Below are positions 1 to 55,071 of a stretch of DNA of 64,000 nt, piece after piece. The stretch is from assembly GCA_050084985.1 (NCBI GenBank), contig JBITNC010000001.1:26474001-26538000 (forward strand), in the 5' to 3' direction. Under the pieces are notes generated by a model, which saw nothing but the letters and a program-made list of their open reading frames with translations, was not told where the DNA came from and did no database searches. The position numbers were made by a program, and so were the translations under genes. Source of the stretch: Nageia nagi. Lineage: Eukaryota; Plantae; Pinophyta. Every line of letters starts with the position of its first letter. Positions within the stretch are counted from its first letter, which is position 1.

Positions 1-261
1 CTGGTGATATCATCATAAGTTTATTATCCATATTCCTATGCATTTATCCTTGCATTTGTGATCCTTTTTCGCTTTCGTTCACATTTGCAGTCTTTCCTCT
101 TTGTGGAAACGAATTTCGATGGTGAATTTTCCTTGTATACGGTTAATAACATGCATCTCTATCCATTGTGCCCTAGTGCATATTCCATGTGAGCGCTTGG
201 GGTAACCATTCCTTTCAGGAGTAAATAAGTAACGTTGTTTCCTCCGAGTCCTGTTGTTCTA
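1..261 (+). repeat. 3' part of a fourth copy of the giant gene-bearing LTR-like family, last ~35 bp missing
   Basis: Colinear with 7163-7433 (e.g. TTGTATACGGTTAA, CATATTCCATGTGAG, TGTTTCCTCC). Confidence 0.8.
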
Positions 262-1099
262 CACCTTTTGAGTAGCGGTTGAGGTGAGTGTTTGTGTTGT
301 GAGGTTGCCCTACCCTGAGGCGTCTATAACATCTGCACCTTTGAATCCATCCGGTGGTATTCCGGAACTACATTCGATCTCTTTGTCGGTAGATAGCTTG
401 TGAGAGAGCCCTTCAGTGTGGCATCCACAGATTTGATAGTGTGGTTGTTCTACAGTGGTTTTAGCAACAATATTCATCCTTTCACAACTGTGTACCCTAG
501 TTGGCTCCTTGGAGGCCAACGTTGAGCTCTCTTGGGCTTGATATTTGTTGGTATGTTTTTCTTTCCTCATCTAAAACATGCACAAGACTTGGAGGAAACA
601 ACGTTACTTGTTTTCGCTTGAAAGGACTGGTTACTGCAAGCGCTCACATGGAATATGGACCCGAGTACAGTGGATAGAGATGCATGTTGTTAATCGTATA
701 CAAGAGAAATTCACCGTTGAAATTTTTTTCCACAAAGAGAAAAGATTGCAAGAGTGAATGAAAGCAAAGAAAGATCACAAATGCAAGGATAAATGGATAG
801 GAATATAGACATAAGCTTATGAGAGTGTCACAGTGATGTAGTGTCGTAGCTGGTCATCTTCAGATTCCTTAAGAAAAATGTATTCACTTATCAAACTTGG
901 AAGCAAATAACAAAGCTCAAGTTGCTACTAGACAAGCAAGAAGTTGTAGGGTTTGTTGTGCCTACACAACACCCCCCAATTTTTTTTTTGCATTTTGAGG
1001 ACTCTAAGGAAAACAAATAGGAAATTGCATGAAAGAAATTTGTCAAAGGGAATGCATATCTTTGGGACTAGTTTCGGGAACATGTTTAAACTGCATTGT

Positions 1100-2600
1100 C
1101 ATGGTAGTCAAGTCAAAATCATGCATTTTTAGGCCTATCGAATGTCTTTTAATGAGTCCTTTTACACCCCTCTCAAACCATGCGACCAACCTCTTCCTAC
1201 GTTTTTCATCTCTTGCATTTCATGTTTAAAGGCACCCTAAAGGACTCCATGTTGTAGGAATCCATTTGCATTTTATGTGCGTCATTTTTGGTCAAAAATG
1301 CAAAGGGAAAGGAGTCATTTTCAGCCTGTTGCATGTTTTGAGGGTGTGCTTTTGCACCCTCTAGAAAAGGTGCGACCAGGGTGAACATCTTCTCACACTT
1401 AGCATTTTTGTCGTTGCATTAAGTTGTCGCATGTTTTTTCATAAGAGTCCTTTTGCACCCTTTGGAAAAGGTGCGACCAAGGTGGAGATTTCTATACTTA
1501 GCATTTTCAAACTTGTTGCATGTTTTTGGATGAGTCCTTTTGCACTCACCAAAAACGGTGGGACCAGAGGAGATTTCATACTTAGCATTTTTTTTTGGAG
1601 CATTAAGGCTGTTGCATGCTATTAGGAGAGTTCTTTTGCACTCGTCCAAGAGGGTGCAACAAAGTGGAGAATACTTAGTCATTTTCTTGGGCATCAAAGC
1701 TTGTCGCATGCTTTTTGAGGTGTCCTTTTGCGCCCATCAGTGAAGGAAAATTGGCTAAGTGTTGGACTTTGTTTGTTGACAAGTGGAAACTCATGCACTT
1801 GGACCTCCTTCCAAACCTATCACGTGGTGACACTTGTCCCAGCCGGAGGGGCTATAAAAAGGAAGTCAACCCCTTTGTTTCAGTTTGCAAACCTGTCTGG
1901 GGCAGAGCGTGGGAGTAGAGAAGAAAAAGCATTCCTTCCAGGGTGTGCGACCAAGGACCACTTGTATTTTTTTGAAGTATCTTGAGATCTCAGGCGTTGG
2001 GAAGCGTGCCAGGACTCAAGCGCAAGGATTGAGACACATGCTTTTAGCACCCATTCAAAAGGGTGCGACCAAGGGTGAAACTTCAATTTCGTTTGGAATT
2101 TGGCTAAGTGCTTAAGGGCCCAATCGCATGCTTTTCATCACGTCCTTTTGCACCCTTCAAGAGACATGCACCCTTATTCTTGGTCCGCTATTTGACCACT
2201 AGATGAACCAATCGGAAGGTGACACTTGGCAAGTACATGAATCTATAAATACCCCCATCCCATGATCATTTCAATCACTTCATTTCAGAAATACCCTCTT
2301 CCCTAGTCCCGCCATTTCTCATGCATGCTTAGGCACTCATTCCAAAACGTGCGACAAAGAAGAAGGAAGGTTTTTGGGGAACATTACACATCTAGTTAGC
2401 CTTTTTGGCCAAGGCATTTCAGTCCAACCCTTGGAGCTAGTCGCATACTTTCAAAGATGTACTCAAAACACTCATCCTAAACCATGCGCCCAGATTTGAA
2501 GTGAAGAATTTTGTCTTGGAAATTGACTAATTGACCCTAGGCCCAGTCGCATGCTTTTCTAGCTATGCTTTTGCACTCATCCAAAACTGTGTTCCTAGAT
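1100..2600 (+). repeat. Degenerate ~85-100-bp repeat array upstream of the X ORF
   Basis: Recurrent unit GT(C/T)GCATG...TTTTGCACCC...GGTGCGACC, seen more than 10 times. Confidence 0.75.
2243..2252 (+). promoter_or_regulatory. Candidate TATA box for the X ORF
   Basis: CTATAAATAC ~400 bp upstream of ATG 2651, followed by TCATTTCA initiator-like sequence; a similar GGCTATAAAAA lies at ~1851. Confidence 0.5.
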
Positions 2601-2650
2601 TGGTCAGACATCAGGAGTTGAAAGGGGAAGGAGATAAGTGATATTCTTAC

Positions 2651-5600
2651 ATGGCTTCAAACATCAGAGCACCTCTATTGAGAGCCAGGAAGATTCAAAG
2701 TTAGTTGTTCGAAAGGCATGTGACCAAAAGCCAGATGACTCAGCTTTTGAAGGAAAGCCTGATTGAATTTCAGCAGAAAGAGAAACCAGAGCTCCCTGAA
2801 GCCAAATTCAAGGGGAGACATATCTTCATTGGTGACACAGATTGGGGAAACTTGGACCCTATCCTAAACGTAGCTTCCATGTCCTCCATCAGCAAAGAGG
2901 ACTTATTAGAAGAACTCATCGACACATGCGATTTGTTCAATGCTGCTATGATGCCATTTGCAATACCTTTTCTTGACCTATGCAGTGAAGTTGCTAGGAA
3001 GTGTGAATATGAGAAAAGGGTCTTGCAGGACAGAGAGGGCAACGTGATCATAGACTTTTACCCTGCTAGAGTTGAAGCAGCCTTTGGTTGAAAAAGATAT
3101 GGGGACGATTATACATTGGCTTATTCTGAGGAGTTCTATGATTCCACAGCCCGGCGTGGGGATTACATTCGACCCTGGTTGCTTGAAGAGTATCAAAACC
3201 TTCAAGGGCAGAGATTAATCAGGCATGGAGAGAGGAATTTTTGCCAGTTGTGGCAATATTGATCACTCTCATGTCGAGGTTGACTGGTCAAGAAAATGAT
3301 ATCAAATATAGAAGAGAGTTCACAGGTTTAAGTGCAGCTATCAGTTTGGGGAGACCTATTCGATGGGTTGGGGTAATCAATGATGCCCTGTGCTACCAGT
3401 TAGCCTATTTCGGTTCCTCGAAGAAGTTCTATATGAACTCTTATCTTGTGTACTTGTTGTTGCATGGTAAAGCCAGATCCAAGGAGTTAGCTGATGAAAG
3501 GTACTTGGGGCAAAACACCCTCGTGTGGAGAGCTTACCAAAAGTGGTGGTATCAGAACACGTTCCAGTATTTCTATGAGAGGACCAATTACTGGGAGTAT
3601 GACATCTACAAGGATATCAAAGGGGAGTCTGTTGTGAAGAAGATTTCTGATGCAGCTGCTCAAGCCATCAGTGTACATGCAGATTTCTTTTTGCAAGACG
3701 TTGGCTTTACATATATCAGAGTCTATGGCTCAGAAGAGAAACACCTGCTACAGCCGAGATATGCCAATGACAGGTTCATTCTCATGGAATTTGCCAAACA
3801 ACTCTTTATTCTTGAAGGAGAAGGTCTGGAAGAAGAAGAACACCACCTTAAATTTGCCTATTTCTATATCCAGATATGTGTGCCGGACGTGGGTTGAGGC
3901 AACACATATGAGGGAAGAGCTACAACAGTACAACTTCTTCAGGGAAGCTACTGCTAGGAACTATGATCCTAAGGGGATAATTGTACATTTCTATGACATG
4001 ACTTTCTACAAGCCCATTGTGTTTCCACATAAGTCTTTGGTAATCAAAGAGAAGTATAGGAACGTGCATGATAGAGGGGAAATTGCATGAATAGATGCTC
4101 TTTTGAGCAAGAAACCTTCAAAGACCTCGAACTACCAAGCCCCGATCTAAAGAGGTCCCTCTAAAGATCAAGTCTCTTTCTGCTGCTCACACAATGTCCT
4201 CACCAAGAAAGACACTCTTGCTTCCTGAAGGAAAAAGGCAAGAGGCCCCGAGGGAGCCCATCTTAGGTTCCAGCAAACACAGTGTAATAGAGGCTAATCT
4301 CAAAGACGTTGGTTATCATGCTTTTCCCGCAGATGTGCTGGATGATGTGGTGAATGCACCTTGTGCCATTGGTTCACTCACCAAGGCAATCTCTTCCAGA
4401 TCTGCTCATTCTCCTGGTTCCAGGGAGAAAGTTTCCCCTCTACAACCAAGTTCTAGCTCTAGCCCTAGCTCTGAACGCTCCTCTTTTTCTTCCGATGAAG
4501 AAACCGATGAAGATCCTGATCGTACAATGGAAGATTCTGGAAAAGAATCAGAAAGCCGTAGCGAGAGAGAAGAAGATGATATTGATAATGTTGCGAATAT
4601 GCCTGAGCAAGAGGATGTAGCTGTAGGTGCTTCAGCATGATGAGACGTAAATTGAAACCATCTTGGATGAAAAGATAGTGGATGTTGGTACCTATGATGA
4701 TGACGTCCAGATAGTTGGAGAAAAGTGCACTAGAGAGGTGGTTGCATCTAAATCCTTTCCTGCCAAACATAGGAAGAAGTCACCTTCTTCGCATAAATCC
4801 TCCTCCAAGAGGAGTCATGATAGATCTCCCCAGCTTCCGAATAAAGGATTATCTATAGGCGCTAATGGAGGAGATGAAGAAGACGAAGGAGAGACTAAAG
4901 AACAGAAAAAGAACAGGAGGCAGGAGGAGCATCAAGGCAAAGAAATGGCCGTAGTTCAAACCACTCTAGTGAAGGAGGTCAAGACAATCGATAAAGGAAG
5001 ATTGCTGGTTCAAAGGTTTCCCCCTCGGGCAGCAACTGAACATTTGGATCTTGATCTGGATGCTTGCCTTAGAGCCCTCAGCATGTGTATGGTTCATGAT
5101 GAAGGCATATACTAGGACTTACGTTCTGAAGATGTCGAGGAAGAACTTTCAGATGGGGAGAAGATTCATAGGGTGGACATTTTTTCCTCCACCTCTCAAA
5201 AAGAGATCTCCATTAGCCATTACGACTCTCAGGAGAAGCACCCTCAGAGAGCAGAGGACTATGTCATCGAGACATTCAAGATGCCTGTGAAACTAGGGTT
5301 GACAGCTAGAAAACGCATTGTTGCTCAGAATGCTGCAGTCATTGAGTAGGAAGGCTATGAAGCCAAAAAGGAGGTGAAGAGGTTGAAGAAGGAATTCACG
5401 GCTAGGAGGAAGATCATCAAGGAGTTCCTAAAAATTAGCACCACCCCTTTAGATCTGCAGAAGCAGACTTCCTTCCATGAAGGATGGAAACTGATGGAGT
5501 AGCTTAGGAACGAAGTGATGGAGGCCATCGAGAGATTGTCTTCACAGATTTACAAACTCTTTGCTGAAGGTGTTGAAATTAGGGATCTTAAGACACAACT

Positions 5601-6155
5601 TTCAGCACACCTTAGCTCGTTGGATAGTTATCTTCCCAACGTCTCCTATCTGGAGCACATATATGCCGACAACCCTGAGAAATTGGTCTATTGCCACGAG
5701 TTCACTTATCATCACGATTGGTTGAACCACACACTTGAGAAGTGCAACGCAGTCCTGAAAATCGGAATCCCCTTGAAAAAGGAGTTCGAGGAACAGATGA
5801 GTATCTTTATCAACTCAAGTTCCAAGGGGAGGATAACAACGTTAGGAAGGAGGAGGCGGTATTGGTAGAGGCCCAAAATCTGATTTAGGAGCATCTTGAA
5901 GTTAATGATCTCAACTTGTTGAAGGCAGGACATTCCATCGTCCATGAGAAGCAAATGGTCATCTAGAGATACCAGATGCAGGTTATGTCCAAGAAGATTG
6001 AAGGATACTTCTTGTAGAGTGGCAGTACTATTGGCATGATCTCAAGGGGCATGCAGAAGACTATGGCATTCCTGGAGGAGACCATTGAGTCCTACAGTCT
6101 CACTAGCAAGGAGTGGAACTCCGCCCATATCGAATCAGATCTGGCCTATGTCTGA
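2651..6155 (+). pseudogene. Decayed ~1,170-codon ORF of unknown function (retroelement accessory-ORF-like) in element X
   Basis: ORF-track fragments 2705-3091, 3241-3897, 3650-4090, 4194-4640, 4663-5115 and 5515-5868 link through stops and frameshifts. Motifs GDTDWGNLDPI and RWVGVINDALCYQL..KKFYMNSYLVYLLLH are shared with Y and W. End position approximate. Confidence 0.85.
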
Positions 6156-6502
6156 TTCACTATGTCAGACTTTATTTCATCTGATTTGGTTGGTGTAGGG
6201 ATGAGATTTTGCTCCCGCCAAATCAAATCTGTCAGACTCATTTATGGCTTTGATCGGTGCAGGGATGAGGTTTTTCTCCCGCCGGTTTAGATGTCAGACT
6301 TTTCAGAATATTTATTGCATATCTGATTTACTGTTTCATAGATTAGATATAGATTAGATGCGTTTTGATGGTGGCATTTATATTTTGTCAGCTTTAAGTG
6401 CCACTTGCATAGTTTTTTGCGATCTGATTTTGTATTGATATGTGTGTTGTGTGTGTGTGCATCATATCAGATTTGATGCCTTTAGGGTAGTACTTCTAGT
6501 GG

Positions 6503-6513
6503 CCTATTTATAC
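6503..6513 (+). promoter_or_regulatory. Candidate LTR (U3/R) TATA box downstream of the ORF in X
   Basis: CCTATTTATAC ~960 bp before the 3' terminus; the same motif is conserved in Y at ~8052-8064; an equivalent CTCTATAAGTAAG (rev. comp.) is in W at ~40991-41003. Confidence 0.45.
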
Positions 6514-8467
6514 CCCACTCGAGCCATTTAGAAGAGGATTTTGACATGAGTGATTTTTGATATGAGGAATTTATGCATAGGATCTTGACACAATTTTGCA
6601 TGGGACTTCTGCACTTAATAAAAGCATCATATATTGGAGTTCTTGCATCTTTGAGATCCTGGCTATGGGTTTATGTATGTAATCATTTTGTGCCTTTGCA
6701 TATTATAATACTCATATTCCATTGCATAGAGGTTTGCTGCATAAGGGGTTCTATGCATGTATCTTTGTTGAAAATCATTATGAATGTGTCTATCTAGAGG
6801 AATGAAATCTTAAAGTTTATACTATGAGGAATATCATTTGTGGGATTATGCATATTTGAATGATTCTTTCTTTGAGCTGCATATTGAATATTCATGTGAA
6901 AGAGTTTGATCCTTCTTTGCATAGTTTGCATGTAAGAGGATATATTCTGAGGCTTACAACTTGTCTTTATATCATTCGGTTAGGTTATTGCACTCATGCC
7001 CTTATTTCACCTATACTCCCTCCATTAGTCTTCCACAAAGACCCTACAGCTCCTTGCTCTTGTTTGGTAGTGTTTTGAGCATATTTGCTATTTGCTGCCC
7101 AACTTGATAGTGAGTGCATCAACCTTAATAAATTTGAAGATGACCTGCTGAGACTCTGTATCCCTGGTGATATCTTCATAAGTCTTTTCCTTTGCTCGCA
7201 TTTCCTTGCATCTATCCCTGTGTTTGTCCTTGCATTTGTGATTTTTCTTCGCTTTCATTCACATTTGCATTCTTTCCTCATTTGTGGAAAGGATCTTCGG
7301 TGTGTATTTCCCTTGTATACGGTTAACAACATGCATCTTTGATTGCTGAGCCATCAAGACCATATTCCATGTGAGTGCTTGGGGTAACCAATCTTTTCTG
7401 GTGGAAACAAGTAATGCTGTTTCCTCCAAGTCTTGTGCATGTTTTGGGCAAGGAAAGAAAAACGTACCAACAGGGTCTATGATGGAAGACTCGATGGGAA
7501 TGAGATGAAGGGAAATGACCATGTGAATACATAAATTCTAGCTGAAGGACATAGAGATAAGTTGTAAGCCACATAATACATTCACTTATGTGCAAACCAT
7601 GCAATGAACAATTTAAATCACTTCAACAAATATTCAACTTTCTTCTCTTAAAACTTGCAGTTTTCAAAAAGAATGCACTTAAGCAGTAAAAACTATTCAA
7701 GCTGGTAAGAAACTCTTACAAAAATAAGATGCATGGTTCCACGAATGACAAACTTCGCAGCATTTGCTTTATAAAACCATTCCAGAAAGAAACAAACTTG
7801 CAAATATACTCAATAATATGAATATGAGCATTCCTTTCTTGATTGCAAAAGAACTCTGAATATGATATTTCAAAATGAATTAGAGATACAACAACAATAT
7901 GGCAGAAATCGTCTATGTAACCACAGTATGCAACAATCGACCATATGCAAAAGTGCCTCCATGCAATAATGATATGCAAAAATGTGTATGGCAAAAGTCC
8001 TCAATGCAATTACCAATATGCAACAATCCTGTTCTAAATGGCCTGAGTGGGGTATAAATAGGCCACTAGAAGTGTTGTCCTAAAGGCTTCAAATCTAATA
8101 CGATGTGCTCACATGCAACACACATACCAATGCAAAATTTGATTGTTTTATAAATAACTATGCAAGTGGTATTTAAAGGTTGACAAAACATAAATGCCAC
8201 TATCCAAAAATGTGTAATCTACCTCTAATCCATGCAAAAATAATTTAGAAATGCTATAAATGTCTAACATCTGAACTGTTAGGAGCAAAACCTCATCCTT
8301 GCACCGATCAGATTCATAAATGAGTCTGACAAATTTGATCTAGTGGGAGCAAAAACTCATCCCTACCCCAATCAAATCAAGTAAATGAAGTCTGAACATA
8401 ATCAAAACCACCAACAATATGCATTTAACAATTGAAAAGACTGTTACAGACAAAATCTGCAAGTGGA

Positions 8468-11400
8468 TCAAATCTAGGCCAAATTTGATTCGGCACCTAT
8501 GGAGTTCCACTTTTTGTTGGTGAGATCGTATGACTCTATGGAAATCATACCCCCAATGTTGTTTTTCTGCCTCGATCTGCTTAGACATAGCCTGCATCTG
8601 AAATTTCTAGATGACCATCTAACTCTCGTGATGAATGGGTCTGCCTGCCTTCAATAGGTTGAGATCCTTGACCTCAAGATGCTTCTAAATTAGGTTTTCT
8701 GCTTCTTCCAAGATTGCTTCTTTTCTTTGCATGTTGTTATCTTCCCCTTGGAATTTTAATTGATAAACATATTGATTCATTTGTTCTTCCACTTCCTTTC
8801 TCAAGGGTATTCTTATTTTCAATACTATATGGCACTTGTCCAGTGCATGCTTCAGCCAGTCATGCTAATACATAAACTCATGGCAGAAGACCAATTTTTT
8901 AGGTTTGTTAGCGATGATTTGCTGCAAGTGGGTGATGGTGAGGAGATAACCATCAAGCTTCTCGAGGAGGGATGTTATTTGGGATTTCAACTCCCTAATC
9001 TCAACGCCTTCATAAGGAGGCGATAAACTTGAGAAGCTATGGTTTCCATCATCTGCTTCTTCAAAACATCTTTCATTAATTCCCACCCCACATGGAATGA
9101 AGTTTAAATTCTATAGGAGTAGTACTTATAGTTTGGAATTCCTTTATGATTTTCCTATTGGCTGTGAGTTCCTTTTTGAATCTTCTCACCTCCTTCTTGG
9201 CTTCATAGCCTTCTTGTTCCATGACAACAACATTCTAAGTGACTGTGTTTTTTGGCTGACAGACCTAATTTTGCAAGCATCTTGATAGTCTCAATCATGA
9301 AATCTTCAGGTCTTTGGGATTCTTCTCCTTGGAGTAACAATGGCTAATGGAAATCTCCTTCCTAGAAGTAGAGACAAAGGTATCTACTCTCCTAACTTTT
9401 TCACCATCAGAGAGCTCCTTTTCTTCGTCCTCAAACCTTAGATCTTGATCAATGTCTTCATCATGAGCTGTGCTCATTCTCAAAGCTCTTAGGTAGGCAT
9501 CCAAGTCAAGTTTGGATGTTCGATGGATGGCTTGGGGGAAACCTCTGTACTAGCACTCTTTTTTTATTTTTCTTCTTGACTTCTTTTGTTGGAGTGGATT
9601 GAATGAGGGAAACCTCCTTAACTTGGTGCTCTTCCTGCTTCCTCTTCTTCTTCTGCTCTTCAATCTTATCTTCATCATCCTCATCTCCACCACCACCTCC
9701 TAAAGATATGACTTTTCTACGTGGTTGAGGGGATTTCTCATGGCTGGTTCTTTTCACTAAAGGCGGGGACGACTTCTTCCTATGTTCTGCAGGAGAGGGT
9801 TTGGAAGAAGGTACTTGCTTAGCATATCTCACTCCAACAATATGGACGTCTTCATCACATGTCTCAACATCAATAAACAAATCATCTTCATCAACCGGGA
9901 GAGTATCAATCTCCGTATGATCAAGTGCAGAAGCACCTACAACTACATTCTCTTGATCAGGGTAATCATCATGGGGATCGAGCTCAACATCTTTATCGTC
10001 ATCACCATCATCCTCTTCGTCTTCTTCTTCTTCTTCTTCACCACGACTCTCTTCTTCTTCTCCTTGCCTCTTTGTTTCTTCTTTTGAACCTTCTTTAGCA
10101 TAGCCGGGTTCTTCATCATCTTCTTCATTGGAAGAAGAGGTAGAGGAGTGTTCGGAAGAATTGGAACTTGGTTGCAATGGGGGAACTTTCTCTCTGCATC
10201 CAGGAAGATGAGAGGATCTCTGTGGAGTCTTCCTGATAGGGGATCACTAGCACAAGCATTCTCCAAGGGACATCATGGTAGCCAACATCCCTAGGATCAG
10301 CCACTTGTTGGCCTATCTCTGTTGTGTTGGCAACTACACTACATTTACTTGATTTCATTGAAGCATATTGCCCCAAGGTACCTTGTCTTTTCCCAATGGG
10401 AAGTAAGGATTACTTGACTTGTGGAGGTGCATTGCTAGGAGGAGGAGGTGTCTTGATCCTAAGTAGGACCTCTTTAGGTCGTTCTTTCACAGTTCTAGGT
10501 CTTTGAGGTGTCTTCTTCTCTGTTTGAAAAGGGGCCTTGTTTCTTCACAGAAGAACATCTATCTTTGCTATTTCCCCTTCATTATGCACATTCCTGTATT
10601 TCTCTACATTCCCCAAAGACTTATGCTTATACACTACAGGTTTCTGGAATGCAGTGTTAAAGAAAAGGGAAATAACATCTCTAGGATCATAATTTCTTAC
10701 TGCTGCCTCCTTGTAGAAAACATATTGCTGCAACTCCTTGATACTTTTGGCCTCAACCCAAGTCTGGAAAACATAACTCATAATGGAAATAGGAAAGTTA
10801 ATTGTAGCATCTTTCTTTCTCTATACTCGCTCCTTCAAGAACAACAATTGCCTGGCAAACTCCATGAGGACTAGCCTATTGCTAGAAGATTTGGGCAAGA
10901 GTAGAGGCTACTCTTTGGAGCCATAGACTCTGATGTAAGTGTGGTCAGTGTCGAAAACAAATCGGGCAGTTGAATGAATTCGCTTGGCAATTAGGCAGTT
11001 CCAGTTGAATGCATTTCGGATGCTTTCGAAGAGAAGTTGACTAGCTCTTCTAATGGCTAGATCCAAACCTGGATACAGGGCGGAACTGCAAGTAGAAATT
11101 TGCATGTACACTAATGGCTTGGATGGCTGCATTAGAAATCCTCTTCACCATTGACTCACTTTTGATCTCCTTGTGAATGGCATACTCCCACTCATCATTC
11201 CTCTTGTAGTAATGCCTAAACTTGTTGTGATACCACCACTTAGGGTAAACATTCAACAATGGGATGCCTTTCTTACCCAACTTTCTCTCATTTGCATGCT
11301 CCTTGGATTTGCATTTACCATGTAACAATAGATACACTAAGTAAGAGTTCATATAAAACGTCCTGGAAGAGCCAAAGTAAACTAGCTGGTGGCACAAGGC

Positions 11401-12132
11401 ATCACTGATCACCCTACTCCATCGTATGGCTCTCCCTGAATTGATCATTGCTATGAAACTGATGAACTCTTTCCTATACTTAGTGTCATTCTCCTAGCCT
11501 GTGACTCTGGACAACAAGGTGATCAACTTAAATACTTTTGGGAGGAACTCCTCCCTACAGGCACTAACCAATCTCTAGCTTTGGATACCCTGATAATCTT
11601 CATAAAACCAACATTTGATATAATCCCCAGGTTAGGCAGTAGTATCATGGAACTCCTCTAATTGGGCCAAATTGTAATCATCTCCATATCTTCTCCAATC
11701 AAAAGCAGCTTCAATCCCTTCTAGAGAGAAGTCCATGATCACGTTTCCTTCCGTGTCCAAGAAACCTCTCTTATCATATTTGCAGTGTTTGGATACTTCA
11801 TAGCACAAGTCAGGAGAAGGAACAACAAAAGGCATCATAGTGGCAATGAATAATCCACAAGAGTGGATAATCTCATCTGTAAATCTTCTTCTTTAATAGA
11901 AGCAGTGGATGCTATAGTCTGGATGGGATCAACATTTCCCCAATCTGTATCTCCAACAAAAGTGAATCTCCCCTTGAATTTGGCTTCAAGGAGCTCTAGT
12001 TTTTCTCTTTCTTGAAACTCAATCTGGCTTTCTCTCATAATTCTCTCCATACGATCTTCTGTGATGTCTCTCAAAGAGTTGCTTTTGAATTTTTTTGGAT
12101 TTGGATGGGATGGGCTTTGCCCTAGAACTCAT
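8468..12132 (-). pseudogene. Decayed ~1,220-codon homologue of the X ORF in element Y
   Basis: Begins MSSRAKPIPSKSKKIQKQLFERH; fragments with GDTDWGNVDPI, RWSRVISDALCHQL..FYMNSYLVYLLLH, an acidic S/E-rich middle and C-terminal GVEIRELKSQ...LVFCHEF, all colinear with X. Confidence 0.85.
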
Positions 12133-14660
12133 CTTGAATTTTGAAAAATGCAGAAAATGATAGGAAAAAGTTTGAATTCTAGCTGAAAATGTCCCTAAAG
12201 GGGTCAAGCAAAAATTTGGATGTGTCCTGTAGCAATGCAGAAAATGCTAGACGTACAGGTTCAGCTGCAAAAATGTCCAGCAGAAATAAACTGGAATACC
12301 CCTTTTATAGAGGTCGCATGGAGGGTATATGTCTGGCACTCTGCATGGGTGCCACTTATCTTCTTATCCCTTTGACTCTTGGCTTCCTCAGTATTTAGTC
12401 AATTTTAGCTCACAATTCCTAGGGCGCATTGTTTTAAAGGTTGTTTTTTCACTACCTGAAAAACATGCAATTGGACACTTGGTATATGGACATATAACTA
12501 AGTCAATTTTATGTTTTCCAGGGCAATAATATGTCACATTGAAAGTTCAAATCACCACTTCATGCTAGGGCGCACCGATTTAGGCAAGTGCTTTTTCATC
12601 ACAAAAAATCCTTGCACCTCAAATTTTCATGCATAAATGAAGGGAGAATGAAATGCACCTCATAACATAAATACTTAGCCAAAATTCTCAATTCAGACCT
12701 GGATGCATTGTTTTGGATGGGTCCTTTGCACTACTGGAAAATCATGCACCTAGGTCAATTAGGGCAAACCATGCAAAAAGAAATGAAGTGAATTTCAAAA
12801 ATTGGACCTTGAGATCCAACTTACCCCTAAGAAAAATGGCTCCAGACAACTCAAATGCCTTTTCAAACCCTTATTCCTCCTAGGTGCACCGATTTGAGTG
12901 AGTCCTAAAGCATAGTTTGGAAATGGTGCGATTGGGGGGCCTTGAACAAAATGAAATGAAGTGGTAAATAATACAAGGGGTGACCTCCTATATATAACTT
13001 TCCATCTTGCCATGTGTCACTTTTTCATTGGTAAAAAGTGAGGTCAAATGGTCGAGCCAGGATGGAGGGTGCACGTTTTAGAGTGAGTGCTTTTCCATGT
13101 TCCAGAATGCATGTGCCTACCAACTTGGTGCAACAAAATGACTTACCCAATTTTTATCAACCTTTCATCTCTTGAAGGTTGGTCGCACCTTTTTGGAAGG
13201 GTGCAAAAGCACGTCCCAAAATCCTTGCACCTAGGGGGTAGGCACCTTCTTGAAAACTTAAATTGAAAATCCCTAAGAATTTTGGGCTCACTAATTTAGG
13301 AGTTCAAAAGCATGTCCCAGAAAACATGCGCCTGGCCAAGGTGGAATTCTATACTTAGTCAAAAAAACTTGCTCCTGGGCCAAGACGTCTTGAGGCTAGT
13401 GCACCAATTTACTTGAGTGCTTTCACGATTTCCCATAATCATGCGCACAGCTCCATGGCACTCACCAATGCAATAAATTAAACTTTAATAAAAATGGCTT
13501 CCAAAAATAATTTCCAAGGTGGGCTGTACCAATTTGGAAGAGTGCTTCACCTCACCTTGAAGAAAGACTTAGCTTAATGCACCACCAATTGACCAAATGA
13601 CTTGAAAAATGAAATTCACCTCCGTTTATAGCCTTGGTCCCCATATGGACAAGTGTCACACATTGTTTGGTGTGAATGAAGGCCAAATGCATGTGAACAC
13701 ACTTTTCTCCCTCATGGTGGACGTCCAGAATTTTGACACTTAGCCAATTTTATGCACATGAAAGGATGGGCACACCATTTTTTGTACATACAAAAGCATG
13801 TCCCCAAAAGCATGCGCTCAAGCTATTTTACCAATTTTCTATAAAAAAATGCCAAGTGTTTGAAACACCTCATCCACTTGGGCGTAACTTTTTGGTATGT
13901 GCTCTTTCATTGCATGAAATACATACGCCCAAGCACAAAATATGTCAATTTTTGCGAAAATGACCCCCCAAAATGATGGGCAATGAGGGGGATAATGCAA
14001 CTTTACAAATGACAAGTGCAAATTTGGCATGAAGAATGCAATTTAAACATGAAAATGTAGGAATTCACCAGAAACATGCAAAATGAGGTTGGGCACACCA
14101 TTTATGGTGCATGCAAAAGCATGTCCCCTAAACTATGCGCCTAGGACAAAATGGTGTTTTAGATTTGTTTGAACATGAAAATGCAAATTTACCATGTTTA
14201 TCCTCGTTTGGCCTGAAATTTGTGCATTTGACTTAGAAAAATTTTCACCTTAGTCTCTCAGTATGATGAGGGTACTAAAAAAATGCAAAATTTTCGGGGG
14301 GGGGGGGGTGTTGTGCAGGCACAACAATATTATATTGATCTCATCATTTATCATTAAAACAGCTGTGGCATATTGGATCTTCACTTATTGTCTCATGTTT
14401 GTATGTGTTTGGTGCAATCTTGTCTCATTGTGCATGATGTTGGGCATTTAAGTTGTAATTGTGCTTGTATAGTGGGTCGTTCGCATTCTTGGCTCAGTTT
14501 TATGTGTATTTGATGCCCTAGATCAGTTCGTGGCATGCCTAGGAGCATAGTTTGATATCTATTTCATATTTACTTGGCTAATTTCCACGTTGAGAATATT
14601 TGGGATTTTACAGTTTCTTGCACTAATGCCTTCCTTTATAGTACCGATTTAGCTTTCACT

Positions 14661-15593: not shown

Positions 15594-15701
15594 GTTGCTT
15601 TCCATGCTGTGAGAAAGTTTGATGGTAAATCATTTAGACAGTTACTTCCTGGTGAATACACGCAAATGGCTGGGCGAGCAGGTCGGCGTGGGCTAGATGA
15701 G
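15594..15701 (+). CDS. SKI2: SKI2-like DExH-box RNA helicase, internal exon (helicase motif VI region)
   Basis: CAG| acceptor, |GTTGGT donor; 108 bp translating [36 protein letters not shown], which contains the Ski2-family [10 protein letters not shown] motif VI. Not in the ORF track. Confidence 0.95.
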
Positions 15702-19273: not shown

Positions 19274-19275
19274 AG

Positions 19276-39890: not shown

Positions 39891-42800
39891 GAGGGTGGAC
39901 GAATCTCCCTAAAGCCAAGGATTCACCAAAACAACCCTCTCCAAGTGCTACAATCCTTCTCAAGCTTGTTTGTGTTGGGATGCTTTTCTTTTCCGCGCGG
40001 GACACTCTGAATATCGCGGGCAAAACTTAGGAGATCCCAAGCAACATAGTTGGGAATGCATTACCAATTCCCCTGGTTGAAAAGGATTGTGTACGTCCAA
40101 GGCTCTTATTGAAACACCCTGTCCAGCGACCCCAACATTGTTATGTTGTAAGGTGTGTTCGCTAGGTGTGTTTCGGGATAGGGATAGATAAATAAAAGGT
40201 GCAGTATCCCTCTTTGGAATTAGCCTCAATGGAATGGAATGAAAGGTATGTAGTCTTTTAACCAACGATGTTTTATTCTTTGATGTATAGAGTTTGTTCG
40301 GAACTTTTGTGCATGGACGTAATGATTGTATTAGGGTTTGAAAGCATAAAGGAAAAATGTTAAGATGTGAAGGACAACACCTTGGAGAAAGAAATGGATA
40401 CTTGGTTGGATTATGAGTTCGAGGTTCACTGACAGGAAAGTGTCTAAGAGTTGATCTCTTTCGAATCGGTTAAGGACTCTTCATCCAATTCATCCAACCT
40501 TGCAAGCAACCAACTTCATGTTCGAATTGCTTCAAAGATGAGCAGGGAGAAACATCAAATGGATGGAAACAAGAGTTTCAAGATGAGAGGATCATGGGTT
40601 TGGATGAAGGACCTAACAAGATGTCATGAAAGTAGAAATTTGACATAGAATACCCAATCAACTTGCGTGTTAAGGATCAAGCAACAAACATAGGTAGACT
40701 TCAAGTACTTTTTAAAGTTTTTTCAAAGATAACTTCCCTAAAGCTCTTGAGCTTTCAAAAGAATAAAATGAAAGTACACAAATCCACTATGAGTGCCCTC
40801 AAAGAATTAATCAATAACACCAATGTGAAAAGTTTCAAACTCAAGTCTTTGCTTTAACCACTTTGTATTAATTTGAAAAAGAGTCATGCAACGATACATC
40901 AAGTTGCTACTCTCTTACAAAAGTTCTCTCTCCAAGCTTGAAGTATTTTGCTTCAAAATGAAGTCCTTACAAAAATGAGACCCTTGGTCTCTTACTTATA
41001 GAGTTTGGAAGCCCTAAAACTGACTTTTGAAACCCTAGAAATGAGTTTCAAAACCCTAACCCTAATTACGAAATTAAAAGCTAATTAAAAATGCTAAATA
41101 GAGATTACAATTGAACGTAGTGGAAATCCACTAAGTTGGCCAAATATTTGGCATATGTATCAAAAATTTGCCAAAATAGACTCCTTTGTATTCTGGCGAT
41201 TGTGGGAAGATGACTTGCATGTTTGTGGCGATTTTGGCTTCAAAGTCATCTCCCATGAACGCTTCTACATTCCTAATGGCACGATGGATTGTTTGGAGAG
41301 CTCCTTCGTTTGATAGCAGGTGCTCCAAGATGGCCTTATTGGTTTTGACCATTTCCTTGCTCCAATTAGCCAATCTCATCCCTCCTATCATTTGTTTTCC
41401 TATTTTTAGGCTATGTGGATCCTCAGAACATATATGCTTTATGATAGTGGCGTGGATCATTGTCATCATTGTCATATACTCCTTAATGCTACCATTTTCC
41501 TCAAACAAGGTTACCTGGAATTCGTATTCCCTTGCCTGTTTATTGATGACGGCTTTGAGCTGGTTTCTGGTGTATATGAAGTCAGTGGACTTGGCTTTGA
41601 TATAGAACAAGTAATCGTATAGTTGGAACCAATCTATGCAAAAATCCAACACGAAAGGATGATGGGTTTCCCTTCTTCGTATGTCTAGTATTGTAGGGCA
41701 CCCATTCTTCCATCTGATGATCAATTGGTCTATTTTCTCCGCTTGAGAATGCGACCTGTCCTTCTCAATATAAAAATTTACCTTGCTTGAGTGGAGTGCT
41801 TTGATGGCCTCAATGAGGTTCTTGGTCCATCCTTGTTTTAGGGCAGTTATTTCAGTATTTAAGTCAACCTGCTTTTTGATGTCTTCAACTATCAAATTAG
41901 AAGCCTTGACTTCTTTGTCGATCATTTTCTACCTCGCCACTATCTTCTTCAGCTTTCGGTTCTCTAACTTCAATAACATACCAGATTCCCTCAATGCCTG
42001 TGCATTTGTGATGATGTTGTGCTCCATTCCCAATTGGCCAACAATCTTTGTAGGGGCCTCTTCTGTCTCGATGGTGAGGGCAAACTTTCTGGTACTAGCC
42101 TTGTTTTTCCTTGAGTAGAGCTTATCCTTATAGGTGACTTTTCCTACAGTGGTGATAAGAGTATCAATTTGCTAAAGTTCCTCATTTTCATCTTCGGAAT
42201 CTTCTCTTTCGCAGGGATGATTTGAACTCAAATTGGCCATCATTGCAACCATGTCGAAGCGGGGTTCCATAGGTTGTTTTCTGTAGGGAACCATCTCTTT
42301 GTCTTCAATGATCTCAACATCATGCTCTACTTGTCTTCTTTTTCTCCTCTATTCTTCATTTTCTCTCTCATCCTCCTGATTTCCATCGTCTCCCCTTGAA
42401 GATGACGCCATTGCCCTGGGTCTTGAAGTACCCTTTTGAGCTGATGTTGTTGTGGTTCTCCGAGATGGTGGTGTTTGCGATGCCTGTTTTGAGGAGCAGA
42501 TTTTGGGGTAGCCTCTCCTACTGCTTGCTGTACAATCATATCAGCTGAGGGATTGCCTTCACTAAGGATCTCTACTAAATGATCAATGTTGACCCGCTCA
42601 AAGGCAGTATCTTGGTTTATCTCCATGTCGGTGTTGATGATTGCAGCAAAATCCATCTCTTCATCGGTCTTTGATGAGTCACTTAGTCCATATTTATCGG
42701 AACTGGATGATGATGTGTAGGGTTTTTGATTCAGGTGCATACCACTCCGGTTCAAACCTTGCGGGAGATTTATCTTTTTTTGCAAGTGTTTGAATGGTTG

Positions 42801-42927
42801 AGAGATCAGGCCTACTCTTCTGAGGTCCAGGATTTCATTTCTCGTACTTGTGATAGTTGTTTCAATGGTTTGTCCAGGGATGCTATTGGTAGCATACTGC
42901 CCGTTCTATCCTTGAGCCAGGGTTACT

Positions 42928-45900
42928 TGTAATGTTCCAAAAATAAATATTTTGTAAATGTCTCCTACGCTTAATTATAAAAGTGGAAAAGGGGTTCATG
43001 TGACTAGGAGACATAACTTAAGTTGTGTTTATTTATGTTTTATATTTTTATTTTTTTGTAATAAGGTACTTTAAGTGATTTTAGGGTTAGGAGATGTCAA
43101 CTCCAAATTAGAACCTCATTCTATAAAAGGAAGTGAGCATCTCATTTGGAGGATGTTATGTGATATGAGAATTGAATATTGAAACCCTAGAGTTTCCATG
43201 AGTTGAGATTGCAGGTCTTGCTCATTCCCATAGTGCATTGGAGGTGCATGGTTGGGGACTTGGCAATATCATTGAAGGTGTTATTGCCCTAAAATATAAA
43301 AAATACAAAAAGAGGCATCTGTGAGTGGTTCGTGGCATTTCTTTTGGGGAGGGATTCACTCAGTTTGAAAAGTTTGTATCTGCATTTTTAGTTTCGTGAG
43401 GATTCCATTTGTCCATTCCAACTTTGTATTGGTTTGGAAATATTTAATATATATGATACTGGCTGATTTCTCCTCATACTAGTGTTATTTTATGAGCAAT
43501 TTCTGAGTTATTTTATTGCTGCAATTTATTTTTGCATTTTTATATTGAGGGTTTGCTAGAAATAAAGAAATAAAAATAAAAGGAACATCACAAGTGGTAT
43601 CAGAGCTTGGATCTTGCCAGCTTGTGGTTAGATCTAACATTTTTCAAAGATTTGGAGAGTTTTTGTAGAAAATTCAGATTTTCAGTTTCCAGCATCTGGG
43701 TATTGAAGAAATTTGGGTGATCTGCATTTTAAAAGCAATTTTCAGAGTCAAAAAGGCATTTTTTTTAAGAAATCTGCATTCCTAGACTAAGTCGTCTAGG
43801 TTTGGGAGAAAAAATTTGCAGGATTGAAAGCTATTTTCAAGCCCAAAAAGTCTTGATCTATTATTCTAGCCAGAAAAAAGTCTTGAGAATTCAAGGCAGA
43901 ATTGGAGTTGTGTTTTCTTTGAATTAGGGTTTTCAGAAAAATTAGGGATTTCAGAAATTTTTTGTGGGTATTTCAGATTCATGTTAAAAAGTGCTTTTCT
44001 ATGGTGAAAATTTATGCCCTGGTGAAAATTGCGGATTTTTAGGGGATTCGCGGATTTTTAGGGATGTGTATTAGAAAATAAAAATTGCAGATTTGGATAC
44101 CCTTTTGGCCAAATTGAAGATTTGTGGCTTCAGAAAAAATTTGGTGGTAAGAATTTTTCAGTATTTCAAAATTCCATTCTTTTGAAGGTTTGATAGGGTT
44201 TTATGCATCGTCCCCCTATTCATCAGTATTTTACTAGGAAAAACAAACTTGCTTTGGAAATGGCAAACAAGGCAGAGGATGAGGAGCCCCAAAGGCCAGT
44301 TGATAGGACTGAGCAAAAGTTCGATGCCCTACTTAACATGATGCAAAGAATGGTGTCCTTACAAGAGACAAATCAGCAAGAATTGAGGGCAGCTTTGGGC
44401 AAGCCAAATGGCACAAGGAGGGAAGGAGAAAGGGGGAAAAACAACAATGGGCATGAGTCATCATCTAATTCACATACTCCCTTGCCTAGGCCATCCAAGC
44501 CTATGTTTCTTGCTCCACCACCTTCACCAGAGGAAGATGAGGTAACTGATGAATTAGATGAATGGTTTGCTGCTTATAGTAATAAATCTGAAGGTTTTAG
44601 GGCAGCAGTTTCTTTTGATAAATATTTGAAGATTGTGGGTAAATCTGTTGTTGAGGCTAAAAAAGAGAAAAAGAAACCCTTATTGCATCAAAAGGTGACC
44701 ATTCCCTCATTTAATGGTCAAGATGGTCTCACAGCTAAGGCATGGCTTCAAAAATTGCAAACTTATTTTACCTTGGAGCCTATTTCTGAAGCTGATGCAG
44801 TTCAGATTGCTACACTTCACCTTGAGGGTAGTGCTTACTTATGGTGGCATCATGGGTTAGTAACCCAAGGGCACAGTGATATTGATATATTTGATGAGTT
44901 TTGTGTTAGGGTTTTGAACAGGTTTGAAAGATGGAATGTGGAAGAGTATTTTAAGGAGCTTGCCACTTTGAAGCAAACTTCATCCATTCATGCCTATGTG
45001 GAGGAGTTTGAGCAACTTTTAGTTCAGGTCCAAAACATATCACCCAAGAGGGTAATTTTTCTTTTTATGGATGGTTTATTGGAACCTTTGAAAGGGCTAG
45101 TTAAGGCTTTTGAGCCAGTTACTCTTGATGATGCCATTAAGAGGGCTTTGAACTTGGAATCTGTTTTACCTCCTAGGCAGAAATATGTTGCACATAACAC
45201 ATCTGTTAGACCACATTTTGCAGCTAGGAAAACAGGTTTTGGACTGCAGTATGGACAATCAGGAAATCTCACGCAGCAAGGTGGAAATGAAAGGAATTTT
45301 TATGGCAAGAATCCCATGCATAGAGAGGGTTTCAGATCTGGTTTTCAGCCATCTAATAAGCCTCCAAATGGACCACGCTTGACACAAGAAGAGAAATATG
45401 AGCTAAGGAAACAAAACAAGTGTTTCATTTGCAAGTCTCCTTGGCAAAGAGGTCATAAATGTAGAGAAGGAGGTATGAAAATCATTGAATTACATTCTGA
45501 TTCTGATTCTGATAATTCTGATTTTTATGAGGCAGATGAGACACCTTTGGAAGAGGAAGCACAAAGGGAGTATGACGAAGTTCCTGAAGGTTCCCTAGCC
45601 ACTTTGAGTGGGTTGAATGAGTTTCGCACTATTAAAGTACCAGGTAGATCTTTTGATGAGAAGGTTATTGTTTTAATAGATGGTGGTGCTACTTACAATT
45701 TTGTTGATGAGAAGTTTGCCACTAGAAAGAATCTTCCTACAACTATCATTCCTGGTTTTAGTGTTGCTATTGGCAATGGTGATCTTATCACTTGCAACAA
45801 AGTGGTAAGAAACATAAAAATTAATTTTGGCAACATGGAAGTAGATGAGCAATTCTTTGTTTTTCCCTTAGGAGGCATTCCACATATGGTTTTGGGTGTG

Positions 45901-48900: not shown

Positions 48901-49615
48901 GATCCAACTTTGACTTTGCTTGAGGACAAGCAATTTGAGGAGGGTGGACTTGTAATGTTCCAAAAATAAATATTTTGTAAATGTCTCCTACACTTAATTA
49001 TAAAAGTGGAAAAGGGGTTCATGTGACTAGAAGACATAACTTAAGTTGTGTTTATTTATGTTTTATATTTTTATTTTTTTGTAATAAGGTACTTTAAGTG
49101 ATTTTAGGGTTAGGAGATGTCAACTCCAAATTAGAACCTCATTCTATAAAAGGAAGTGAGCATCTCATTTGGAGGATGTTATGTGATATGCGAATTGAAT
49201 ATTGAAACCCTAGAGTTTCCATGAGTTGAGATTGCATGTCTTGCTCATTCCCATAGTGCATTGGAGGTGCATGGTTGGGGACTTGGCAATATCATTGAAG
49301 GTGTTATTGCCCTAAAATATAAAAAATACAAAAAGAGGCATCTGTGAGTGGTTCGTGGCATTTCTTTTTAGGAGGGATTCACTCAGTTTGGAAAGTTTGT
49401 ATCTGCATTTTTAGTTTCGTGAGGATTCCATTTGTCCATTCTAGCTTTGTATTGGTTTGGAAATATTTAATATATATGATACTGGCTGATTTCTCCTCAT
49501 ACTAGTGTTATTTTATGAGCAATTTCTGAGTTATTTTATTGCTGCAATTTATTTTTGCATTTTTATATTGAGGGTTTGCTAGAAATAAAGAAATAAAAAT
49601 AAAACGAACATCACA
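42928..49615 (+). mobile_element. Near-intact Gypsy chromovirus G2 (IFG/Reina-like)
   Basis: 665-bp LTRs at 42928-43592 and 48951-49615 (~10 differences); PBS 43595-43606, PPT; TSD TTACT/TTACA. Confidence 0.97.
44203..48969 (+). pseudogene. G2 gag-pol polyprotein (gag-PR-RT-RH-IN-chromodomain) with frameshifts after 47619
   Basis: 1138-aa ORF with CFICKSPWQRGHKC, LIDGGATYNF, FFDDIL and ACDAS. Downstream fragments carry integrase (SMDFITGLP, SDRD, GPY) and chromodomain (EYLVKWKNLPVEDATWE); the stop lies inside the 3' LTR. Confidence 0.95.
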
Positions 49616-54500: not shown

Positions 54501-55071
54501 ATGATGCCTTTTCCGCCTTGGAGGTCATTCACTCAAAACTCCATTGTGTGGTTGTTGTCGTAATCCACAACTCCGTCCTCTGAGACATGGCTGAGCTGAA
54601 TTGTTTCCATGACTCCGGGGCATGCTTGTCTGCTACTTTGATCATCTAGCCGTTCTGAGTCTCTATACCGGCGTAGTAAGTTGATCATGCCCAGGCAATG
54701 TTGCTCATTGTCGTTTGAAAACATTGGGTCCCCAAAATGCTGCATCTTGGGTTGTGTTGTGCAAACACAACAGTTTGAAGTCTCCAAAATCTGAATGAGC
54801 TTCTCTTCTTGCAATTTTGAAATGATGCTCAAGGATTGCGAACTTGCTTTCCAATTTTGTGTGCTTCTTTCTCCCACCTCAACGTCTTCTTTTATAGGGT
54901 CCTTTAAAATTTTCGAATTGATATTTTCCCTCCAAATTTCCAGGCGACTTATTCCTCAAATAAAATAATTTTTCCGAAATAAAATATTCTCTTCTCTCTT
55001 AATTAATTCCAAAAAATTTCGAATTGATTATAATAAGGAAATAAGGAAAATTGGAATCATAAGGAGATACT

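Follow-up and report, generated by a model that had tools for sequence, protein, structure and literature searches.

A gene with a predicted VANC-like fold inside large LTR-like units bounded by target-site duplications in Nageia nagi

Three broken copies of one gene

The window, by which we mean the whole 64-kb stretch of Nageia nagi DNA that was analysed, holds three copies of one gene, here called X, Y and W. ORF X, delimited by motif and similarity comparison, is on the forward strand at 2651..6155 (ATG at 2651, end at about 6155) and consists of an N-terminal domain (about 2651-4100), an acidic/basic low-complexity linker (about 4130-5150) and a helical C-terminal region (about 5300-6155). 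ORF Y is on the reverse strand at 8470..12132 (ATG at 12132, end at about 8470). ORF W, also reverse, comes in two parts, the N-terminal one at 49616..51143 (ATG at 51143) and the linker and C-terminal one at 41134..42927, which resumes beyond an unrelated chromovirus-type Ty3 element nested in the ORF (42928..49615, forward strand; LTRs 98.5% alike, TSD TTACT / TTACA). The sequence-only reading had drawn the family's limits at 2651..12132, a span that takes in X and Y and leaves W outside. The lengths are about 1,170 codons for X, 1,220 for Y and 1,110 for W, and all three copies contain stops and frameshifts.

The N-terminal domain that had been described as common to the three copies is indeed shared: its quoted motifs are found in 3/3, and X or Y match W with E-values of 5e-29 to 1e-12. 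Some of the details needed correction. The spacing of the first motif is GDTD...(L/V)(D/N)PI, the K.FYM motif fails in Y, which reads RTFYM, and of the basic patches in the linker the NLS-like QKKKRKQEE is present in Y only, X reading QKKNRRQEE. The C-terminal regions of X and W, reported to align, do not do so significantly by themselves (E 15) and are joined only through two intermediate relatives; L002 has E-values of 2e-24 with W and 7e-7 with X, and L007 about 2e-7 with each of them. A longer X-W match, low-complexity linker included, has E 9e-11. At the DNA level W and X/Y are as dissimilar as had been supposed, blastn giving no X-W or Y-W match at E 1e-3.

The family is visible only by a full HMMER scan, which found 186 relatives of the ORF; word-based homologue searches gave 1, 1 and 2 matches. 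Past purifying selection, proposed earlier from conservation of the protein, is borne out by dN/dS values of 0.10-0.31 in 17 of 55 pairs (those with dS < 2). For the pair X-Y the value is 0.20 (0.12-0.27), well short of the neutral value of 1, and the identity per codon position is 0.75/0.75/0.51. Judging from their sequences, all three copies, now broken, go back to a single ORF of 1,110-1,220 codons that was formerly under purifying selection. The surrounding units are covered by thousands of divergent contigs in 4/4 public runs, of which X4 is taken to be RNA by guess only. No relatives of the family were found in scans of viral and prokaryote contigs, and the end motif of the units had 13 viral matches without any further similarity.

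The carrier units

Each ORF is enclosed by a discrete unit of 6.5-8.1 kb that starts with TGTTG, finishes with CAACA and is flanked by a 5-bp target-site duplication (TSD). This TSD-bounded TG...CA carrier, overlooked in the sequence-only reading, is a more unusual feature than the ORF itself. Element X (954..7472, forward strand, 6,519 bp) has GGGTT / GGGTC as its flanks, a TSD match of 4/5 bases, and sits reversed within the right arm of element Y. Element Y (546..14326, reverse strand, about 7.26 kb minus the nested X) splits an older unrelated LTR, and element W (39973..54772, reverse strand) is about 8.1 kb minus the nested chromovirus; their TSDs are exact over 5/5 bases (ATATT / ATATT and GTTTG / GTTTG). 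X and Y lie upstream of a mid-gene exon (15594..15701, forward strand) of a host SKI2-like helicase gene and W lies within a 42-kb intron of it (16973-58959, read by eye). A fourth copy of the family is represented by a fragment of the right-arm region at 13..254 (forward strand, 81% to 7213-7436).

TG...CA termini are seen in 3/3 window copies, at 8 of 9 right ends (E1 is altered) and at 6/6 left ends. The 9 right and 6 left termini align and the similarity stops at the terminus, and there are many insertions of family units with unrelated flanks. Contigs of the public runs end exactly at 546 in 4/4 runs (at least 13, 8, 6 and 1 contigs; agreement 0.46-0.49 where there are several) and at 954 in 2/4 (at least 6 and 5; agreement 0.47 and 0.56). 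E1 is without a TSD; its left junction is damaged, and the host sequence around it is continuous. Two other interpretations of the boundaries were ruled out. One was a single element with 440-bp TIRs (546-960 against 7034-7472), which is X nested reversed in Y, and the other a Helitron 3' end, dropped because both ends have a 5-bp TSD.

Read in the sense of the ORF, each unit runs from an end hairpin through a subfamily-specific repeat array and the ORF to a TATA of LTR type some 1 kb short of the far end. The X terminus upstream of the ORF (954..971, forward strand) is an 18-bp hairpin, TGTTGTG-N4-CACAACA, which is common to X, Y (14309-14326) and W (54755-54772). The upstream arm of X holds a quasi-palindromic repeat array of about 9 units (1130..2600, forward strand), that of Y (12133..14326, reverse strand) a repeat array and the terminal hairpin, and that of W (51144..54772, reverse strand, 3.6 kb) longer repeats of about 370 bp with a different motif. 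Inverted half-site pairs 34-44 bp apart number 7 in X and 10 in Y against shuffle maxima of 4 and 5, for a pattern picked post hoc from the same data. There are none in 5/5 control regions, and they are not clearly enriched in W, L002, L005, E3 and E4.

In X the start codon is preceded, at a distance of 408 bp, by a TATA-like box (2243..2250, forward strand, with a second one at about 1852) that is a putative internal promoter of ORF X. Beyond the ORF a conserved CTAT(A/T)(A/T)RTA box with a CATT tract after it (6503..6535, forward strand) lies about 0.96 kb before the right end of X, with an AATAAA about 110 bp past it, and this region is a putative LTR promoter and R region. The TATA-plus-CATT motif recurs in the ORF sense 0.9-1.0 kb before the right end of 10/10 aligned units. 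Its TATA is canonical in the ORF sense in W, L004 and L007, and the boxes of X and Y are the canonical TATAAATA if read on the opposite strand. The chromovirus LTR of the window gives no in-register alignment with the motif, so that the orientation of the LTR rests on resemblance. An ORF antisense to the LTR promoter was set aside, as W, L004 and L007 favour the sense orientation.

X, Y and W are without gag/pol, PBS, PPT or an LTR pair, the last judged by self-comparison. The RTs seen in the window and the loci come from nested elements of chromovirus and copia type, and pol is linked to no unit. ORF-less relatives of 2.2-2.6 kb exist, and ORF-less units with both ends and the TATA are found at L003 13740-16323, L003 810-3004 and L004 1-1687.

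Predicted fold and possible origin of the units

The AF2 model of the N-domain has a pLDDT of 91 and a pTM of 0.89. Its best structural match is VANC21-DNA (9lnk_A), with 240-245 of 291 residues aligned at rmsd 4.8-4.9, 8% identity and a Z of 6.6, below the Z of 8 that is the comparison tool's caution line. Among 48,161 chains this is the sole one at Z >= 5 in two models, the next being at Z 3.4 with 71 residues aligned. VANC21 is absent from the Foldseek matches listed, and HMM searches of PDB likewise miss it. Foldseek found nothing at E <= 0.001 in PDB (two runs) or BFVD (one run), PDB sequence profiles gave one chance-level match at E 0.083 and then none at E up to 10, and the ESM Atlas had no usable match to the whole protein or the N-domain. 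No gag, env or transposase structures are among the VIA rows, which leaves such folds possible.

In Pfam scans of 49 of 64 window ORFs, of 6 proteins at E up to 10 and of 68 of 150 listed relatives, no family was found for the ORF; PMD (PF10536), DUF1985, Transposase_28, Transposase_32 and ATHILA ORF1 were all unmatched, and so were the gag, env, transposase and integrase profiles. Sub-threshold matches to DUF7405 (2/68 relatives) and DUF7812 (1/68) were not accepted. Published models reportedly give VANC and PMD/MAIN one fold (PMC13547354, 10.1101/2024.09.27.615353). The earlier suggestion that the protein is an accessory factor of a retroelement, acting on chromatin or against silencing, thus gains independent support from the VANC21 match, while the likeness to PMD and Transposase_28/32 did not hold up as membership at the sequence level. 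The targets of VANC are family-specific tandem repeats in non-coding TE DNA (PMC5735166), and the repeat units of X are candidate binding sites of the encoded protein.

The reading we prefer, with a probability of roughly one half, is that each of X, Y and W is a giant LTR of 6.5-8 kb in solo form, carrying a gene in its U3, the predicted PMD/VANC-like product of which would bind its own repeat array and keep the LTR active. The N-domain is predicted to fold like an anti-silencing DNA-binding protein, and therefore the product would likely turn on the element that encodes it. A full-length parent, with an LTR on either side of an internal region and likely more than 15 kb long, would have been inserted by its integrase, and recombination between the two very long LTRs would then have deleted everything between them, so that a single LTR stayed behind with the TSDs around it. 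While the element was active, the internal U3 promoter would have driven an ORF transcript that terminated at the poly(A) site of the LTR. The protein could have entered the nucleus by means of its basic linker patches, oligomerised through the helical C-terminus and, by binding the inverted half-sites that precede its promoter, counteracted methylation or Polycomb silencing in the manner of the VANC and PMD-C proteins. ORF-less derivatives, with ends, repeats and TATA kept, would borrow the protein in trans.

A full-length parent with two LTRs, PBS, PPT and internal region was found neither at 15 ends nor in 8 loci, where contigs are short. All four units with both ends visible stand alone, a recognisable PBS follows 0/5 further right ends (L007 has TGG at +2 and then a protease fragment), and a PPT precedes 0/2 further left ends. 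At the solo:complete ratio of 0.18 in Picea abies (PMC5751070), such an outcome would be very unlikely; at the ratio of 4.26 in Ginkgo (PMC8275611) the chance is, by our own arithmetic, about 0.06. For spruce, LTR length and solo frequency were found to have no connection (PMC5751070), and the largest LTRs named in PMC6317226 reach about 5 kb.

The best of the alternatives is one that we think unlikely: the 6.5-8 kb unit could be the whole element, with no internal region, encoding only its own activator and moved in trans by an integrase-like cut-and-paste on TGTTG ends or as tandem LTR-only copies. All 15 visible ends adjoin unrelated DNA, and the four other LTR elements of the window are complete with two LTRs each, a state never seen in the X/Y/W family. 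ORF-less derivatives retain both ends and the repeat array, like non-autonomous DNA transposons. The loose contig ends in the public runs have no common flank among the matches listed. However, this survey counts the contigs listed and not depth, so a shared PBS junction could escape notice, and two 7-kb LTRs are too long for short-read contigs to span. The inverted repeat is only 5 bp long, the repeat array is at one end only, the ORF has no transposase or integrase domain, and the units conserve a promoter and poly(A) arrangement of LTR type. The wider claim that could follow is held just as tentatively: a high-copy plant element class made of one giant LTR-like unit without gag, pol, transposase or internal region. 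Its sole cargo would be a VANC-fold anti-silencing gene aimed at the element itself, together with the array to which the product binds; it would be integrated in trans, show TG...CA ends and 5-bp TSDs, and be accompanied by ORF-less dependants.

It is improbable, in our judgement, that the carrier is a solo LTR with a protein that serves in structure or trafficking, as a particle, envelope-like or movement protein, instead of regulating through DNA binding. The VANC21 match is moderate and unseen by Foldseek, the fold model leaves out the C-terminal 350 residues, and env-like ORFs also have long helical C-terminal regions (PMC4408406). Such a factor would leave the repeat arrays without explanation, and the basic linker patches, the lack of gag, env or transposase Pfam matches and the lack of a viral fold at E <= 0.001 in BFVD also speak against it.

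We give slightly less credence to a reversed, gag-pol-deleted element of Retand/TatIII type. Its 5' LTR would measure about 1 kb and be followed by an accessory ORF in antisense, tandem repeats and a G-rich PPT, and the 18-bp hairpin would be what is left of its 3' LTR. Gymnosperm TatIII elements do have a PMD ORF in antisense orientation at their 3' end (PMC4408406), Retand has antisense ORFs and tandem arrays before its 3' LTR (PMC11963269), and in X and Y a G-run adjoins the hairpin, with TATAAATA on that strand. But the G-run is missing in W, E1, E3 and E4, there is no terminal duplication for strand transfer, and W, L004 and L007 have their canonical TATA in the sense of the ORF. Pseudogenes of a host family spread by duplication or capture are very improbable and already disfavoured by the TSDs, for although purifying selection alone cannot separate host from mobile genes, each copy is intronless, TSD-bounded and in the same place in a homologous unit, the contigs over the units are divergent and number thousands in every run, and the selection is seen across divergent subfamilies.

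Significance and comparison with known systems

To our knowledge the accessory ORFs of plant LTR retrotransposons have gone functionally unexplained for decades, and we know of VANC-type anti-silencing as established only for Mutator-like DNA transposons. A predicted VANC-fold gene with subfamily-specific repeat arrays in one compact unit makes the idea that retroelements encode self-targeted anti-silencers directly testable, because each diverged subfamily supplies a protein together with its matching target. If the units are solo LTRs, a complete regulatory gene would survive deletion of the retrotransposon body; our literature searches met no 3.4-kb gene inside a plant LTR. Units of 6.5-8 kb without RT or Pfam domain could also explain part of the unclassified repeats of giant plant genomes and may underlie many 'hypothetical' gene models.

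Retroviral ORFs in U3 are familiar from MMTV sag and HIV nef, which are of 0.6-1 kb, have an internal promoter and lie in LTRs under 1.5 kb. The position inside U3 and the internal promoter, here putative, are alike, whereas our ORF, of about 3.4 kb, sits in a unit of 6.5-8 kb and has no relation to them in sequence or function. Ginger and GingerRoot can also have TG...CA ends and no LTR pair, but their TIRs are long (100-150 bp in GingerRoot), their TSDs measure 4 or 6 bp and they encode a DDE integrase (PMC6839031), in contrast to the 5-bp inverted repeat, 5-bp TSD and ORF without rve match found here. The antisense ORFs of Retand (Transposase_28, Grande gene23) and ATHILA ORF1 are accessory ORFs next to tandem repeats, with their own promoter and a proposed role as DNA-binding regulators, much as is proposed for our units, although ours has no Pfam match; Retand LTRs are 315-1,194 bp and Retand is found only in angiosperms (PMC11963269).

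The PMD (PF10536) extra ORFs of Tat/Ogre and TatIII Ty3 retrotransposons are also accessory ORFs with a globular domain and a helical C-terminus, in their case PMD and coiled coil. They would belong to the same predicted fold group by transitivity through VANC, their TSD is of 5 bp and very long LTRs are known in the clade. Our ORF differs in having no Pfam PMD match, and published PMD/OTA eORFs are located internally (before gag, or from pol to the 3' LTR), not inside a TSD-bounded LTR-like unit without PBS, PPT or LTR pair. VANC of the VANDAL (Mutator-like) transposons, such as VANC21 (PDB 9lnk), is separated from our protein by 8% identity without an HMM link, and our units by TG...CA ends, a 5-bp TSD, a single ORF and no MuDR transposase match. 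It is nonetheless the top structural match (245/291 residues), and like our protein it is TE-encoded, combines a domain with a low-complexity region and a helical part, and goes with family-specific repeats in the non-coding DNA of its element.

A conserved gene family

Six-frame reading established the broken ORFs X (2651 to ~6155, plus strand) and Y (12132 to ~8470, minus strand), whose DNA is 65-71% alike over the ORF. The third broken copy, W, lies on the minus strand at 51143-49616 and 42927-41134, interrupted by a nested chromovirus. The sequence-only reading had proposed that the protein is conserved between W and X/Y with little likeness in the DNA, and this was borne out, with protein E-values of 5e-29 to 1e-12 and no DNA match of W to X or Y by blastn. 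Its C-terminal alignment of X with W held in part: the short stretch quoted is not significant alone (E 15), and the two copies are bridged via relatives at metagenome loci L002 and L007.

Codons were compared over the first 480 residues of 11 copies, three from the window and eight from metagenome loci that possibly belong to other species. In the 17 of 55 pairs with dS below 2, dN/dS was 0.10-0.31 with bootstrap upper bounds of at most 0.45, for codons chosen by local alignment score and pairs that are non-independent. The other 38 pairs have synonymous sites near or at saturation and amino-acid identity still at 37-63%. These ratios are far from 1, the value named as speaking against past purifying selection, and they support that earlier claim. 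X, Y and W are a real, formerly functional gene family.

An intact N-terminal relative (protein entries P0006/P0008) is coded by L002. HMMER found 186 relatives at E <=0.001 among 1.84 billion representatives, mostly fragments and including distant subfamilies at 20-30% identity; the annotation of 10 relatives left eight nameless and called two "hypothetical protein", and no Pfam family exceeded its own cut-off in the proteins scanned. AlphaFold predicts with confidence a mainly helical N-domain at residues 35-325 (pLDDT 91, pTM 0.89); beyond it come a subdomain ending near residue 445, a long helix spanning 448-496 and a linker predicted to be disordered. Among 48,161 solved chains the sole match with Z of at least 5, in both models, was DNA-bound VANC21, the anti-silencing protein of a VANDAL transposon (Z 6.6, below the tool's caution line; rmsd 4.8 and 4.9, 240 and 245 residues aligned, 8% identity); the runner-up in the domain-only run aligned over 71 residues and reached Z 3.4. 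Neither Foldseek nor searches with profiles recovered this link. The match between models and structure is probably real, given its reach over 84% of the domain, its clear lead over the other matches and the fact that VANC21 is encoded by a plant transposon; it speaks to fold and not to function.

Carrier units and their layout

Each ORF lies in a unit bounded by a target-site duplication (TSD): X at 954-7472 (GGGTT/GGGTC), Y at 546-14326 (ATATT/ATATT) and W at 39973-54772 (GTTTG/GTTTG), where simple arithmetic puts the chance of an exact 5-bp match at about 1 in 1,000. X is inserted in reverse within the right arm, or non-coding flank, of Y, and Y itself interrupts an older LTR (253-545 and 14327-14612) of a family with more minus-strand copies at about 30130-31820. 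The left ends have in common a TGTTGTG hairpin and a CCC-AAAAT tract (six ends compared), and the right ends an A-rich tract and CAACA (nine ends compared). We take the left terminus to be similar to Ogre LTR starts, as a lead only. Self-comparison of the units gave nothing beyond sub-terminal repeats and no LTR pair. No gag, pol or transposase domain was found inside X, Y or W. Each of four public runs placed 3,835-16,690 contigs on 1-14800, covering 30 of 30 bins, and the majority were less than 95% alike to the window; by contig counts among the matches listed, some end exactly at 546 and 954 and continue into unrelated DNA. Discrete TSD-bounded units, divergent contigs and exact breaks at the ends together mark the units as a high-copy family of integrated elements.

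In the ORF sense a unit runs from the hairpin through a 1.7-3.6 kb arm with repeat arrays to the ORF, a TATA-like box and the right end. In all 10 units aligned, a TATA-like box accompanied by a CATT tract is conserved 0.9-1.0 kb short of the right end, and TATA-like boxes occur 179-869 bp upstream of the start codon in all four arms checked. By analogy this layout resembles U3-R-U5 with the gene placed in U3. W and the L004 and L007 units show the canonical box in the ORF sense, and X, Y and four others show it on the opposite strand; since its strand differs among units, we infer the orientation. The non-coding right arms of X and Y (6884-7472 equivalent) are 72-79% alike against 51% at third codon positions, which argues that the terminal kilobase is under strong constraint in cis.

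Arm motifs are subfamily-specific and rare outside the arms. Inverted half-site pairs 34-44 bp apart, a pattern chosen post hoc from inspected data, number 7 in X (shuffle maximum 4) and 10 in Y (shuffle maximum 5). E1, a further family unit, has 5 (shuffle maximum 6), and its best 3-bp spacing window was matched in 0 of 200 shuffles. Such pairs were absent from all five control regions and showed no clear enrichment in the other five of eight arms; the W and L002 arms use a different motif.

Three ORF-less units of 2.2-2.6 kb have the same ends and TATA-like box (L003 13740-16323, L003 810-3004 and L004 1-1687). All three contain a long near-perfect palindromic repeat unit and sit within ORF-bearing family members, hinting at self-targeting. 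The 810-3004 unit retains a trace resembling the end of the distant L003 ORF (from 18219), and on this evidence the ORF-less units seem to have arisen by deletion. The distant-subfamily unit itself (L003 18219-20429) has the same right end and TATA-like box, and at E 1e-3 the C-terminus of its ORF matched none of X, W and P0008.

The host intron and its other elements

The window covers transposon-packed introns of a plant gene encoding a SKI2-like helicase. The exon at 15594-15701 matches SKI2 (E 2e-11), and further exons, read by eye, at 15909-16058, 16854-16972 and 58960-59113 delimit a single 42-kb intron (16973-58959), which houses W together with five or more further LTR elements or their remnants. 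The size of the intron, along with a likeness to hypothetical proteins annotated in conifers, would fit a gymnosperm-type host. Chromovirus and copia elements occupy the remainder of the window. The young chromovirus-type Ty3 element nested in ORF W (42928-49615; LTRs 98.5% alike, open gag-pol frame of 1,140 codons at 44197-47619) gives a minimum age for the decay of W. A second chromovirus (17880-26618) is 92-98% alike to it; its PBS near 19275 is preceded by DNA unlike its own 3' LTR (a weak 62-bp match only), and it is possibly a chimera or has a replaced 5' LTR. The recent 3.5-kb element at 59824-63348 (574-bp LTRs 99% alike, TSD AATCC) has a 598-codon open frame with protease and Tf2-type SH3 matches and no RT or integrase match; judged from its sequence, it is coding though apparently non-autonomous. 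On the minus strand, a 2.7-kb element (55072-57763; 227-bp LTRs 99% alike, TSD ATACT) gave no Pfam match in the ORFs scanned, and its interior has short inverted matches to the copia element at 33988-39891.

Solo LTR or whole element

We favor the reading of the unit as a giant solo LTR, with a total probability of roughly 0.6. All 15 visible unit ends adjoin unrelated DNA, and none has a clear PBS or PPT, both of which are present in the window's chromovirus. Because of these 15 ends, the solo-LTR reading holds only if solo formation greatly exceeds the ratio of 0.18 given for spruce (PMC5751070) and somewhat exceeds the 4.26 given for Ginkgo (PMC8275611), an excess that the great length of the LTRs and a bias of assembly might produce. 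A unit that moves without any internal region we consider unlikely, and a collapsed Retand-type element less likely still. For a family of host pseudogenes, set beside the TSDs, we see hardly any prospect.

One published survey gives element lengths up to ~24 kb with LTRs up to ~5 kb, and sorts eORFs by whether they lie on the 5' or the 3' side of the polyprotein, with a known domain in only 21.4% (PMC6317226). Another source describes an antisense 3' PMD ORF in gymnosperm Tat lineage III and PMD with a coiled coil in later lineages (PMC4408406). In the literature covered, which takes in few subscription journals and no Repbase, no paper listed was relevant to an ORF lying within a plant LTR. 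What stands out is that the gene sits beside its likely target array within an LTR-like, TSD-bounded stretch of 6.5-8 kb.

In published work, VANC/DUF1985 and PMD/MAIN are structurally alike and PMD-C opposes Polycomb silencing (PMC13547354, 10.1101/2024.09.27.615353), and VANC targets are short motifs amplified into family-specific tandem repeats (PMC5735166). The sources drawn on also include PMC11963269 on Retand, PMC6839031 on GingerRoot, PMC13477047 and PMC11539532. The earlier guess at a retroelement accessory protein with an anti-silencing role is partly borne out by the predicted fold. The protein differs from the VANC and PMD families in that profiles assign it to neither, and resembles them in its putative role as a self-activator.
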